Source of the DNA: Bacilli bacterium
GTDB lineage: Bacteria > Bacillota_I > Bacilli_A > RFN20 > CAG-826
Length of the DNA stretch: 64,000 bases
Assembly (NCBI GenBank): GCA_050952805.1
Contig: JBMNLM010000001.1
Span: 397,713 to 461,712 of the forward strand
Reading direction: 5' to 3'
In this document: positions 1,691 through 41,783 of the stretch, piece by piece
How positions within the stretch are numbered: the stretch's first letter is position 1
Layout: each line of letters starts with the position of its first letter
Program-made: the position numbers and the translations under genes
Notes under the pieces: generated by a model
Database searches by the model: none
Seen by the model: only the letters and a program-made list of their open reading frames with translations
What the model was told of the DNA's origin: nothing

Positions 1691-1766
1691 TGGTGGAGCT
1701 GACGAGGATCGAACTCGCTACCTCCTCCATGCCATGGAGGCGCTCTCCCAGGTGAGCTACAGCCCC
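1691..1766 (-). tRNA. tRNA-Ala (anticodon GGC)
   Basis: 76-nt cloverleaf on the reverse complement with the Ala-identity G3:U70 pair, anticodon loop AUGGCAU and a CCA end. Confidence 0.8.
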
Positions 1767-1855: not shown

Positions 1856-2524
1856 TTATTCTTGAGCGTTTTCGCTAGTTTCTACTTCTTTAAAGGCTTT
1901 TCCAAAAGGGAGAGTTAAAAGTAGACCGATGTAGTTACCTGCTAATAAGAGTAAGAGATGAAGGATACCTTTTCCAGTAAATAGTTTATGGGAAAGGGAA
2001 ATATACATTAATTCACTAATATAGGGGGAGCTTCCCATAGCGACATAAGCAAAGGCAATTACAAACGTAATTAAATAGTGATGACTCTTCTTCTTTGTTC
2101 CTTTAATTGCTAGTTTCATAATGCCAATACATAAGCCTGTAACGATCGCTAAACCAATAACGCTAAGAGGATGAGCGCTCATTTTTTCCTCTATTAAATA
2201 ATCGACTGTGTTCCCGTATTTATTTCCATAAATTGAGAAGCGAATTAAGTTTCCTAGTAATCCAATCGTTAAAAGACTTACAAAAAAGCCAATTAAGACG
2301 TCGACGATATGCTCGCTTACTTTACCTTCAACGTGGACTGATTCAGTCATAAAGAAATAATTATAAATAAAGACTCCAATTCCGTAAATTAAGCCATATA
2401 CAAGAGCACCAATTAAATAATTATAGTAGTGATAGGCAATGACGTTACCTAGCGCGGCCATTGCAACAATTATTCCATTTACTATGCTTCCTGATATTAC
2501 TTTTAAAACTCTTTTTTTACGCAT
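1856..2524 (-). CDS. Hypothetical polytopic membrane protein
   Basis: ORF with at least 6 predicted hydrophobic helices. The preferred start is ATG at 2522-2524 (MRKKRV), preceded by the RBS AAAGGGGAAA. The longer ORF-track start at 2572 lacks an RBS. Confidence 0.45.
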   Translation of the reverse strand: MRKKRVLKVISGSIVNGIIVAMAALGNVIAYHYYNYLIGALVYGLIYGIGVFIYNYFFMTESVHVEGKVSEHIVDVLIGFFVSLLTIGLLGNLIRFSIYGNKYGNTVDYLIEEKMSAHPLSVIGLAIVTGLCIGIMKLAIKGTKKKSHHYLITFVIAFAYVAMGSSPYISELMYISLSHKLFTGKGILHLLLLLAGNYIGLLLTLPFGKAFKEVETSENAQE

Positions 2525-2639
2525 TTTAATTTTCCCCTTTTTATTACTTTTAACCGCTTTTGAGTATAGCATAATTACACTATTTTTTATATATCACTTG
2601 TGTGTAAATTTTCTCGTGTTTTTATCATACTTTAATCTA

Positions 2640-2668
2640 TTGATTAAGAAACAACGTTATGGTATATT
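2640..2668 (+). promoter_or_regulatory. Sigma-A-type promoter for the riboswitch-antiporter operon
   Basis: -35 TTGATT at 2640-2645, a 17-nt spacer and -10 TATATT at 2663-2668. Confidence 0.5.
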
Positions 2669-2669
2669 C

Positions 2670-2795
2670 GTAGGGAATCTCCGAATCTATAAATTTGAGT
2701 GGGGGACCCAAATTAACTTGGGGTGAATTAACTAGAGTTAAGAGGACACTTACTGTCCTTAACCCGTCAGCTAACCTCATAGGAGTTATTAAGGC
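2670..2795 (+). promoter_or_regulatory. Candidate c-di-AMP riboswitch (ydaO-yuaA/kimA class) in the 5' leader of the CPA2 antiporter gene
   Basis: Ordered conserved blocks GGGGGACCCA (2701-2710), GGGGUGAAUU (2720-2729) and CCCGUCAGCUAACCUCAUAGGAG (2763-2785) match the remembered core of the ydaO motif. The element sits between a promoter and an RBS/ATG at 2813-2828. Identified from memory of the motif, not by a covariance search. Confidence 0.6.
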
Positions 2796-2825
2796 CTTAA
2801 TATTTATAGATTTGGAGGAAAGTGT

Positions 2826-4154
2826 ATGGAATTAATTTTCAAAGTAGCGGTCGTCTTAATCGTTGGTTTTATTGGTGGTCGACTTGCTAGATTACTTAAA
2901 TTGCCTGATGTGTCAGGCTATTTAATTATGGGTCTATTTCTTGGACCATCTTTATCGATCATATTTCGCGGTTACGAAGGGTTTATAACGTCTGATGATC
3001 AACATACGTTAAAGTTTATTAGCGAAATGGCTCTTGCCTTTATTGCCTTTTCAATAGGGAGCGAATTTAACTTTAAACAAGTTAAGAAAATGGGCAAGCA
3101 AATTAACATCATTACGATATTTGAGGTGCTTTTTGCAATACTTGGCGTGTTTATTATCTTATTTTTTATTCCAAAACCAGGGCCAATTATGCCAGATGGT
3201 TATGACCCGTTTACAAAAGAAAACATCGCTTTTGGTCTTGTTTTAGGGTCAATGAGTGCTGCGACGGCGCCGGCGGCAACGCTAATGGTAATTCGTCAAT
3301 ACCGTGCCTATGGGCCTGTTACTAAGTCACTTCTTCCTGTCACTGCCTTAGATGATATTTACGGTATCGTTGCCTTTGGTTTTGCTTTTTCTATAGCACA
3401 AATCCTAACTTCAACGAGTGATATTCCTATTGCACTAATGATTGCAAAACCATTTATTGAAGTAATCGGGTCGGTGCTTATTGGTATGATCCTTGGCTAC
3501 GTTTTATCTAAACTCGCTAACGTGATGGAGAAATCGCGCGATGACTTACAAGTTCTTTCAATCGCCACGATTCTTCTTTCAATTGGCATTATCTATTTAT
3601 TAAATAAATGGTTGAGTCAGTACGCCATCGCGCTTTCTTCCCTGCTTAGTAGTATTACATTAGGAACAATGATTGCGAATCTCGTGAAGAAACCACATAA
3701 CACATTTTCTAGTGTTAACGATTTTACAACGCCGTTTTATGTTCTTTTCTTTACTCTAGCAGGAGCATCACTTGACCTAAGAATTTTAGGACAAAGTGCT
3801 TTAATTGCAATTCTTGCAGTTAGCTACATTTTAGCTAGAGGCTTTGGTAAGTATTTAGGCGCTAGAACAGGGGCAACGATTGCAAAATCAGAAAAAACTG
3901 TGCAAAAATACCTTGGTTTAGCTTTGCTACCCCAAGGTGGGGTATCCCTAGGCCTTCTCGTTATGGTTCAAGCACAGATGCCGGAGTTTTATCCGCTAAT
4001 TTCTACAATAATTATGTTAAGTATCTTGTTTTATGAAACGAGTGGGCCAATTTTTGCTAAAATTGCTATTAGTAAAGCAGGAGAAATTAATGGCCTTGAT
4101 AAACTTGAATTACTTTCAAGTATTGAAGGCATTGAAGCAGTTGAGGAGGTATAA
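2826..4154 (+). CDS. Cation:proton antiporter, CPA2 (Na+/H+ exchanger, Pfam PF00999-like) family, with no fused RCK domain
   Basis: 442-aa ORF with about 12 TM segments. The GYLIMGLFLGPSL and LALLPQGGVSLGL regions are typical of Kef/NapA-type exchangers. RBS GGAGGA 8 nt upstream. Confidence 0.8.
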   Translation: MELIFKVAVVLIVGFIGGRLARLLKLPDVSGYLIMGLFLGPSLSIIFRGYEGFITSDDQHTLKFISEMALAFIAFSIGSEFNFKQVKKMGKQINIITIFEVLFAILGVFIILFFIPKPGPIMPDGYDPFTKENIAFGLVLGSMSAATAPAATLMVIRQYRAYGPVTKSLLPVTALDDIYGIVAFGFAFSIAQILTSTSDIPIALMIAKPFIEVIGSVLIGMILGYVLSKLANVMEKSRDDLQVLSIATILLSIGIIYLLNKWLSQYAIALSSLLSSITLGTMIANLVKKPHNTFSSVNDFTTPFYVLFFTLAGASLDLRILGQSALIAILAVSYILARGFGKYLGARTGATIAKSEKTVQKYLGLALLPQGGVSLGLLVMVQAQMPEFYPLISTIIMLSILFYETSGPIFAKIAISKAGEINGLDKLELLSSIEGIEAVEEV

Positions 4155-4156
4155 TT

Positions 4157-4513
4157 ATGCAAATTCTATTTATTGTTTTAAATGATTTATCACACTTACA
4201 AGAAATTTTAGAAATTTTTATTGAGCAAAAAGTTCGGGGAGCTACAATCCTTGATAGCGAAGGAATGGCAAAAGCCGTTTTAGAATCGCAAGGTTTAAAC
4301 TTTTTGTTAGATGGACCTTTTGCAAAAACTCTACCTGAAAAAGTTAATGGTTCAAAAACCATCTTTACTGTTATTCCTGAAGATGAAAAAGTTGGTGAGG
4401 TAGTCGAGGCTATTCAAAGTGCGCTAACTGATACTGATGAAAAAGTCATTGGTTTTATGTTTACGCTTCCAGTTTCTGGTATTTATCCTTTAAAACCAAA
4501 AAAGACAAAATAA
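4157..4513 (+). CDS. PII-like (GlnB-fold) signalling protein resembling DarA/PstA c-di-AMP receptors
   Basis: 118-aa protein. The N-terminal ILFIVLNDLSHLQEILEIFIEQKVRGATILDSEGMAKA region follows the PII/DarA beta-alpha-beta pattern (compare DarA [37 protein letters not shown]). It starts 3 nt after the antiporter stop. Similarity was judged by eye. Confidence 0.55.
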   Translation: MQILFIVLNDLSHLQEILEIFIEQKVRGATILDSEGMAKAVLESQGLNFLLDGPFAKTLPEKVNGSKTIFTVIPEDEKVGEVVEAIQSALTDTDEKVIGFMFTLPVSGIYPLKPKKTK

Positions 4514-4694: not shown

Positions 4695-4771
4695 GGTGCA
4701 TTAGCTCAGTTGGATAGAGCATTCGCCTCCTAAGCGGAAGGTCCCCTGTTCGAGTCAGGGATGCATCGCCA
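4695..4771 (+). tRNA. tRNA-Arg (anticodon CCU)
   Basis: 77-nt cloverleaf with anticodon loop CUCCUAA, T-arm GTTCGAGTC and a CCA end. Confidence 0.8.
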
Positions 4772-4812: not shown

Positions 4813-4889
4813 TGGTCGGAACGATGAGATTTGAACTCACGACCTTCTGGTCCCGAACCAGACGCACTACCAAGCTGTGCTACGTCCCG
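4813..4889 (-). tRNA. tRNA-Pro (anticodon CGG)
   Basis: 77-nt cloverleaf on the reverse complement with anticodon loop UUCGGGA and a CCA end. It is identical to the tRNA at 55262-55338 except for the anticodon stem-loop. Confidence 0.8.
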
Positions 4890-36824: not shown

Positions 36825-36851
36825 ACTCTAATTATAATATAAAAAAAGTTT

Positions 36852-36957
36852 GGCAACTTGCTATTTTCCCCGAAACGGATATCTTCGCCGCTACTGTGCT
36901 TAACTTCTGTGTTCGAGATGGGAACAGGTGTGTCCACAGCGCCATCGTCACCAAACC
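36852..36957 (-). rRNA. rrf: 5S ribosomal RNA
   Basis: The reverse complement begins GGTTTGGTGACGATGGCG...CCCATCTCGAACACAGAAGTTAAGC, which matches the conserved 5S sequence. Confidence 0.85.
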
Positions 36958-37045
36958 ATTTTGAGCCTTATTCGCTCAAAACTAAATACTATCTTAACAT
37001 GTCTTTCTAAAAATTAATAGTTAATTTTCGCATATATTAACGAAG

Positions 37046-39933
<2,888 letters not shown>

Positions 39934-40225
39934 TTTCTTTATTTGTTGTTAATAAATGCGTTTAATAAAATCAACTTGGTAATTTTTGTTTGTCTCAATC
40001 GCTTTCTTAGTAAAAAAAACGACTTAAACAGAAAGAACATGTTTTTTTATAGTATTTAGTTTTCAAAGAACAAGGTTTTGAGCAACTTAATCGCTCAAAA
40101 CTAAACAGATATACGAACGTCTAATACGAATTAGCATTAGTTTCTTTTTAAAGACGTATTCTAAGAAAACGTCTAGGTTTTTGTTTGTACAATTGTTTGG
40201 ATATTTTTCCAAACGGTTTCTCCAT

Positions 40226-41783
<1,558 letters not shown>

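Follow-up and report, generated by a model that had tools for sequence, protein, structure and literature searches.

Does cyclic di-AMP (c-di-AMP), the essential 'potassium and osmotic' messenger of Gram-positive bacteria, act on a cation:proton antiporter gene through its messenger RNA, and in which direction would it switch the gene? The question is raised by a stretch of 64,000 nucleotides (nt) of contig JBMNLM010000001.1 from a Bacilli bacterium, called the window in what follows, in whose positions 2640-2825 a preliminary description had proposed a c-di-AMP riboswitch. Our analysis suggests that positions 2679-2793 form a functional c-di-AMP aptamer at the 5' end of the messenger RNA of a two-gene operon and that it is most likely a translational ON switch, a reading to which we assign a probability of about 0.58. 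The aptamer is ordinary. Its expression platform is out of the ordinary, and what is new relative to the known class is this platform, a co-varying helix in which the aptamer's own 5' strand pairs with the Shine-Dalgarno (SD) sequence of the antiporter gene.

The whole 64-kb window was scanned with cmscan and Rfam 15, a check that the preliminary description had put forward, and the outcome was strongly positive. RF00379, the Rfam c-di-AMP (ydaO/yuaA) riboswitch, matches at 2669-2800 on the plus strand; the score is 79.2 bits (gathering score 38, E value 9.3e-17, model positions 1-134 of 134), well above what chance would give, and the match is the sole cis-regulatory one in the whole window. 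All 26 modelled aptamer pairs are standard pairs, with just two Watson-Crick pairs in P2, and the pseudoknot forms five of its six pairs, the remaining position being a mismatch (C2753/U2789). The promoter, the three leader blocks, the ribosome-binding site and the ATG of the preliminary description were each found where it had placed them. The elements of the aptamer are the following.

2669-2800, functional core 2679-2793 (+): c-di-AMP aptamer, from the RF00379 match and covariation over 65 leaders
2679-2682 (+): 5' strand of P1, CUCC, pairing with 2782-2785 in the aptamer and, in an alternative fold, with the SD at 2814-2817
2701-2710 (+): conserved block GGGGGACCCA, by direct sequence check
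2720-2729 (+): conserved block GGGGTGAATT, by direct sequence check
2749-2754 (+): 5' strand of the pseudoknot, CUUACU, in the P7 loop, pairing with 2788-2793
2763-2785 (+): conserved block CCCGTCAGCTAACCTCATAGGAG, by direct sequence check
2782-2785 (+): 3' strand of P1, GGAG, the same letters as the SD core
2788-2793 (+): 3' strand of the pseudoknot, AUUAAG, whose last 3 nt are the base of the terminator stem in orthologues

Orthologous loci were sampled from genomes (80), metagenomes (25) and an exact-protein look-up (8); L-numbers denote single loci. A full-length RF00379 match lies directly 5' of the antiporter gene in 32 of the 40 loci scanned with Rfam, and a motif-anchored local search places the aptamer 5' of the orthologous antiporter in 96 of 109 loci, so that the conserved leader anticipated by the preliminary description is present. 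The loci without it belong to the Acholeplasma laidlawii, A. oculi and A. granularum group or are among a few distant ones. Pairs of the antiporter gene and a P-II-like gene (described below) that have no riboswitch were seen in L041, L046-L048, L053 and L054, all of this group, and in L055, L056, L059, L061, L076 and L080; the antiporter gene of A. laidlawii follows a plain promoter-like site and an SD (L053, 2400-2490). RNA control appears to have been lost, or never gained, in this cultured group. A blastn search of the aptamer against plasmids gave no comparator riboswitch before K+ importers.

Covariation in homologous leaders, likewise proposed at the outset as a check, was assessed in an alignment of 65 distinct leaders (A2), the structure tested being the Rfam-style helices with the pseudoknot. 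Standard pairs fill 95.4% of the cells as compared to 38-52% for slid partners, and 227 cells are compensatory as compared to 75 +/- 7 in shuffles. The helices therefore co-vary, with clear double changes in P2, P6, P7 and the pseudoknot; the latter occurs as CUUAAU/AUUAAG, CUUGG/CCAAG and CUUUAG/CUAAAG, and double changes from AU to GC are present in 12-13 sequences. P1, P3 and P5 hardly vary and therefore give little information either way. P1 is invariant as CUCC/GGAG in 65 of 65 leaders (A2 columns 7-10 and 121-124), which is expected if it doubles as an anti-SD/SD-mimic pair; family-wide, its 5' strand reads as a perfect anti-SD and its 3' strand as an SD mimic.

These results bear directly on the idea that there is no RNA element here, the match being due to chance or to the coding sequence of an open reading frame (ORF) of 95 amino acids (aa) at 2439-2726. 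The ORF exists and overlaps the leader element, but close relatives differ by insertions and deletions in the RNA loops (A2) that are not multiples of three and would break its frame, and it is therefore not credible as a gene, in agreement with the preliminary description, which had called it spurious. Further, the covariance-model match is full-length (E value as above), compensatory changes are seen in four structural elements, and in 96 loci the element is flanked by a promoter on one side and by a conserved gene's SD on the other. The idea is effectively refuted. In every feature that can be addressed by computation the leader is a genuine member of RF00379, and the conservation of its core suggests that it binds c-di-AMP. 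The riboswitch proposed for the antiporter leader is borne out by the match, the conserved leader and the helix covariation together.

The free minimum free energy (MFE) fold of the leader is a different structure. Both the MFE and the centroid folds contain a helix of 21 base pairs between 2679-2699 and 2796-2817 in which the SD is buried. The elements concerned are listed here.

2679-2699 (+): 5' strand of the anti-SD helix, made up of the P1 5' strand, the GAA junction and all of P2, from the free MFE fold
2796-2817 (+): 3' strand of the anti-SD helix, which contains the AUAGAU box at 2806-2811 and the SD, from the free MFE fold and the covariation of the box
2814-2818 (+): Shine-Dalgarno sequence GGAGG, 7 nt 5' of the ATG, by direct sequence check
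2826-2828 (+): start codon ATG, by direct sequence check

The energy of this duplex is -24.4 kcal/mol, a value reached by none of 2000 shuffles. Among leaders whose antiporter proteins are at least 70% identical, changes in the box 5' of the SD are matched by changes in the P2 5' strand (AUCUAU/AUAGAU, AUCUAC/GUAGAU, AUCUUC/GAGGAU and AAUCUUU/AAAGAUU). When the 5' strand of each leader was set against its own SD region and those of other leaders, over nine leader subtypes of this clade, the cognate total was reached by 6 of 362,880 permutations (p = 1.7e-5); nine distant leaders, serving as a negative control, gave p = 0.4. The anti-SD helix is conserved and co-varies, and it is not an accident of one sequence. 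In the free ensemble, the probability of being unpaired is 0.00-0.01 for 2814-2817 and 0.14 for G2818, while enforcing the aptamer pairs and blocking the pseudoknot strands raises it to 0.99-1.00 for the SD and leaves GGAGGA in a hairpin loop. Apart from the P1 5' strand, the SD has no strong partner. With the aptamer enforced, 2796-2838 folds into a hairpin of -6.5 kcal/mol, with GGAGGA in the loop and the AUG weakly paired, and this hairpin could be the SD-presenting structure of the bound state.

Sequestration of the SD is also seen sporadically, and apparently independently, in the distant orthologues L063, L062 and L014. The SD region of L063, about 90 nt past the terminator, is the partner of the 5' strand CAAUCUCCGAAU, and in L014 the SD GAGGUGCU pairs with AGCAUC abutting the pseudoknot strand. 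L019 (about 2470-2510) is without a terminator; its 5'-end AUAUUCUCC is perfectly complementary to GGAGAAUAU, which spans the SD and an upstream AUG, and this AUG opens an out-of-frame upstream ORF of nine codons (MKKDDFIII) overlapping the antiporter start.

The SD core and the P1 3' strand are identical (GGAG), and therefore both compete for the P1 5' strand. We propose that the P1 5' strand, the GAA junction and the P2 strand choose between the 3' elements of the aptamer (GGAG at 2782-2785) and the 22-nt segment 2796-2817, which ends in the SD. Without ligand, the 21-base-pair helix would form once 2810-2817 had been transcribed, and the SD would be buried and translation prevented. With c-di-AMP bound co-transcriptionally, P1, P2 and the pseudoknot would be locked and could not be displaced by the invading strand; the SD would then be shown in a hairpin loop and translation would proceed. 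Since the P1 5' strand is shared, a ligand-locked P1 should free the SD, which amounts to an ON switch. This direction is the simplest reading of an anti-SD platform, and we put it at somewhat better than even odds. If the antiporter exports K+, high c-di-AMP would lead to more exporter being made.

A comparable logic is found in the Vibrio vulnificus add adenine riboswitch, a natural translational ON switch in which an aptamer strand of the apo form sequesters the SD and stabilisation of the aptamer by the ligand frees it. It belongs to another aptamer class with another ligand and works close to thermodynamic equilibrium, whereas the helix in the window is far more stable, implying kinetic control. 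In folds of the growing transcript, P1 is favoured for 3' ends at 2786-2807, with a sharp change to the anti-SD helix at 2810-2816. Leaving aside the energies of the pseudoknot, tertiary contacts and ligand, the aptamer-constrained fold is less stable than the free fold by about 20 kcal/mol, and therefore an ON switch would need kinetic trapping within roughly 20-25 nt of transcription. Since picomolar affinity and two ligand sites have been reported for riboswitches of the c-di-AMP class (PMC7266159), such trapping is plausible. The class has also been described as a 'docking' riboswitch in which the ligand recruits the pseudoknot 3' strand (PMC10907184).

The same stability lends itself to a different explanation, namely that the aptamer is real but the switch in this lineage is unresponsive to ligand or needs another input, the helix acting constitutively as a brake on translation, or serving in processing or stability as, for example, an RNase III substrate or a protection of the 5' end, and having arisen after loss of an ancestral terminator. 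The pseudoknot mismatch, the two Watson-Crick pairs of P2 and the stepwise decay of the terminator in the closest relatives (see below) are on its side, as is the energetic advantage of the helix over the aptamer secondary structure. However, the aptamer core is fully conserved and its score of 79 bits is on par with those of the relatives, which argues for continued selection on ligand binding; moreover, the helix uses exactly the strands that are protected in the ligand-bound fold and co-varies with them, and the affinity and the two sites just mentioned speak for trapping. We regard an unresponsive switch as quite improbable.

Terminators have to be considered next. In most orthologous leaders an intrinsic terminator, AAGCGUAUAA...UUAUGCGUUU followed by a U-run, comes right after the pseudoknot strand. 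The last three nt (AAG) of the pseudoknot 3' strand are exactly where the stem of this terminator begins; this holds for about 47 of 66 leaders, which span 48-72% protein identity and have very different upper stems. In the group at about 50% identity the G of this AAG forms a G-C pair, and a hairpin whose left arm consists of the whole pseudoknot strand, followed by a U-run, is present in L003, L022, L027 and L015. There is no terminator between the aptamer and the ATG (2793-2826) in the window, nor in its closest relatives L001 and L081, and the decay is stepwise among the closest relatives, from L082 and L002 through L003 to the window. A hairpin at 2788-2801 (AUUAAGGCCUUAAU) was considered as a residual terminator or pseudoknot competitor; it has an energy of -0.7 kcal/mol, is absent from L001 and was not used as evidence.

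A terminator in this position invites the conventional explanation, an OFF switch like those of kimA, ktrAB and kdp, by which c-di-AMP lowers antiporter expression. Orthologues would then be switched through the adjacent terminator and the window through ligand-dependent occlusion of the ribosome-binding site, with the helix serving, for example, to protect the 5' end of the messenger RNA. All experimentally tested members of the class, which is to say every characterised c-di-AMP riboswitch, are OFF (PMC6488665, PMC10636490, PMC11963983), the terminator directly after the aptamer is strong in most orthologous leaders, and the terminator hairpins stay stable (-5 to -15 kcal/mol) with the pseudoknot strand locked. 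An OFF switch would also suit an Na+/H+ exporter needed under hyperosmotic conditions, when c-di-AMP is low.

Nevertheless, several observations do not agree with an OFF switch. The canonical OFF platform is not seen in the window, where the SD lies 21 nt beyond the pseudoknot strand and no terminator is present. No SD-occluding structure was found for the bound state, in which the enforced-aptamer fold exposes GGAGGA and the P1 5' strand, with which alone the SD pairs strongly, is occupied. No antiterminator was found by blocking the terminator's right shoulder in 12 representative leaders, nor by folding truncated transcripts of terminator-type orthologues, although right-shoulder blocking recovers the published antiterminator of the validated OFF switch of Dehalobacter sp. 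CF. Candidate antiterminators picked by eye (the 5' flank with the left shoulder, or a pseudoknot extended into the P7 5' strand) were rejected as inconsistent across leaders or without covariation.

The argument from coherence concerns L002, L004-L008 and L082, in which a terminator and the co-varying anti-SD helix occur together. Both devices must act one way, and therefore only the combination ON-ON is coherent: with an OFF terminator, the read-through RNAs made at low ligand would have a sequestered SD, in L002 and L004-L008 the helix would silence them, and the gene would never be expressed. As the terminator base lies on the pseudoknot strand and docking of this strand is recruited by the ligand, docking would compete with the terminator. 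A conventional OFF switch is, in our estimation, unlikely, if to be taken seriously.

Comparison with known systems shows where the window departs from the class. The riboswitches of Bacillus subtilis kimA and ktrAB and of B. thuringiensis kdpFABC have the same aptamer class as the window (pseudo-two-fold helices, pseudoknot and core blocks), lie likewise in the 5' leaders of monovalent-cation transport operons, and presumably all report the state of c-di-AMP, K+ and osmolarity. They serve K+ importers, and in experiments an intrinsic terminator makes them OFF switches (PMC6488665, PMC10636490), whereas the window has a KefB/CPA2-like antiporter, no terminator and an SD paired with the aptamer's own 5' strand, which predicts ON. 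The riboswitch upstream of ablA in Dehalobacter sp. CF, a validated OFF switch (PMC9337991), has the same aptamer and likewise one P1 strand with two partners. There the P1 3'/pseudoknot strand pairs with the terminator's left shoulder, a mimic of the P1 5' strand about 55 nt downstream, to form the antiterminator, and ligand leads to termination. The window is its mirror image: the SD region is the mimic, this time of the P1 3' strand, its partner is the P1 5' strand, and ligand should free the SD. P1 differs in sequence elsewhere in the class; in Dehalobacter, for example, it is CGCU/AGCG (supplement of PMC9337991) as compared to CUCC/GGAG in all 65 antiporter leaders.

Translational control at the SD by a c-di-AMP aptamer is shared with riboCdA (PMC11963983). 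In riboCdA the SD is inside the pseudoknot 3' strand and is hidden by docking, giving OFF, while the SD of the window lies outside the pseudoknot. An ON version was engineered in 2025 because natural c-di-AMP riboswitches have an 'inherent OFF genetic output' (PMC11963983). Its mechanism is strand displacement, with a sequestering stem and an element of the aptamer as the two competitors, the same logic as proposed here; however, this version is man-made and sets a stem-loop against the pseudoknot, whereas in the window the competition would be natural, conserved and co-varying, with the P1/P2 5' strand as the competing element. At the protein level, c-di-AMP stimulates the K+ exporters CpaA and KhtT through RCK_C domains (PMC10636490). 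CpaA and KhtTU are CPA-superfamily cation:proton antiporters under c-di-AMP control, as the product of the antiporter gene of the window would be, and with an ON switch the direction would be the same, more messenger giving more export. The control of CpaA and KhtTU is allosteric on the protein (PMC10636490), whereas that in the window would act on the messenger RNA of an antiporter without RCK, whose conserved partner gene encodes a P-II fold and not an RCK subunit.

Several points weigh against an ON switch. Besides the uniform OFF behaviour of the characterised riboswitches, the stability of the free fold and the mismatch in the pseudoknot, a role of the antiporter in Na+/H+ exchange or in uptake would fit OFF. 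With the pseudoknot locked, the terminator hairpins of orthologues lose only 2.6-5.4 kcal/mol, and therefore an ON reading of the terminator-type orthologues is energetically weak and depends on geometry and coherence. The paper on the validated OFF riboswitch of kdp describes no antiterminator (PMC6488665), and therefore the absence of one is not proof of ON. No natural ON c-di-AMP riboswitch and no riboswitch-controlled exporter was found in the searchable literature, a scope outside which primary discovery and structure papers may mention ON members. Finally, the direction of switching in the window is read from sequence and folding.

On balance we prefer the translational ON switch for the window. 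Extending it to the entire branch of antiporter-associated c-di-AMP riboswitches from Acholeplasmataceae and relatives is more tentative, and its chance lies, in our view, slightly short of even. The branch would then be a natural ON class in which docking weakens the terminator, a locked P1 keeps CUCC off the SD, and c-di-AMP induces a K+ (cation)/H+ exporter together with its P-II-like partner.

The leader begins with a promoter, the elements of which are given below.

2640-2645 (+): -35 box TTGATT, at the same place relative to P1 in orthologous leaders
2660-2668 (+): extended -10 box TGgTATATT, with TATATT at 2663-2668, TG at 2660-2661 and a 17-nt spacer

This promoter was listed by a consensus scan, whose matches are no commoner in the region than in shuffles. 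A promoter lies directly 5' of P1 in all leaders examined, and in 33 leaders the -10 box ends 10-12 nt 5' of the P1 CUCC. From this constant placement of the -35/-10 pair, the transcript probably starts 3-6 nt before the aptamer, at about 2672-2676. The layout of promoter (2640-2668), aptamer (2679-2793) and ATG (2826) on the sense strand recurs in the same order in orthologues.

The genes downstream of the leader are these.

2826-4154 (+): cation:proton antiporter gene, 442 aa, Na_H_Exchanger/KefB-like (PF00999, E value 2e-28)
4157-4513 (+): P-II-fold gene, 118 aa, 2 nt after the antiporter stop (PF00543, 25.5 bits, cut-off 25)

The assignment of the antiporter to CPA2 in the preliminary description stands in part. 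PF00999 is above its cut-off, and homologues are named 'cation:proton antiporter' or 'Kef-type K+ transport system membrane component KefB' in their sources; the CPA2 model TIGR00932 gives 46 bits against a cut-off of 238 and is sub-threshold, which leaves the assignment at the family level. PF00999 is the sole Pfam domain in the 442 aa, no RCK_C (TrkA_C) domain being found, and no relative in the PDB was found by sequence at E<=0.001. The homologues come from Acholeplasmataceae, Acholeplasma, Izemoplasmatales and 'Bacilli' metagenome-assembled genomes. The host is an Acholeplasmataceae-like bacterium, and the reduced-genome organism of the preliminary description fits such a Mollicutes-like bacterium.

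The P-II-fold gene follows the antiporter gene in 96 of 104 loci, riboswitch-less loci included. It is probably co-transcribed with the antiporter gene, and its product may be a regulatory partner of the antiporter. The AlphaFold model of this protein shows the beta-alpha-beta-beta-alpha-beta P-II fold with a mean confidence score (pLDDT) of 76.7, and Foldseek relates it with probability 1.0 to GlnB, GlnK, GlnZ, PotN and PstA at about 20% identity; the T-loop region (residues about 34-66) is long, partly helical and of low confidence. A relation to PstA/DarA as a homologue was considered and rejected: there is no PF06153 match at E<=0.01, the likeness is at the level of the fold, and PstA ranks 28 in Foldseek. 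The family (116-123 aa; 173 proteins found, e.g. in L041, L053 and L076) is confined to Acholeplasmataceae-like bacteria and mostly annotated as 'hypothetical'. No diadenylate-cyclase motif was found in the 64-kb window, which is too small for this to be informative.

Upstream of the promoter lies a divergent gene for a membrane protein of 238 aa (1856-2572, minus strand) that scores 31.3 bits with the formate/nitrite transporter family, below the cut-off of 34.6, and is kept beside the antiporter in the closest relatives L081, L086 and L087. The operon is flanked by tRNA genes at 4695-4768 (+), 4816-4889 (-) and 1694-1766 (-), the first two being convergent and right after the P-II-like gene. 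The window also contains a complete 16S-23S-5S rRNA operon (36848-41782, minus strand) and encodes PolC; its GC content is about 35%. T-box leaders (RF00230, 101-105 bits) adjoin the antiporter locus in several relatives, e.g. L008 (3870-4058, plus strand), and in L032, L036 and L039 one is present at about 2003-2192 on the minus strand, opposite to and just upstream of the riboswitch promoter.

To our knowledge, c-di-AMP represses importers at both the RNA and the protein level and stimulates exporters at the protein level only. If our reading is true, a natural ON c-di-AMP riboswitch before an antiporter would supply control of an exporter at the RNA level, the case still missing; it would complement the repression of import at the RNA level and stand in for the absent RCK_C domain. 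It would also mean that the structurally complex c-di-AMP aptamer can be wired both ways, and would provide a ready-made natural ON sensor for c-di-AMP. If the switch is OFF instead, RF00379 would gain an ordinary member whose translational platform is unusual. The finding marks the antiporter and P-II-like module as part of the c-di-AMP regulon in Mollicutes-like bacteria.

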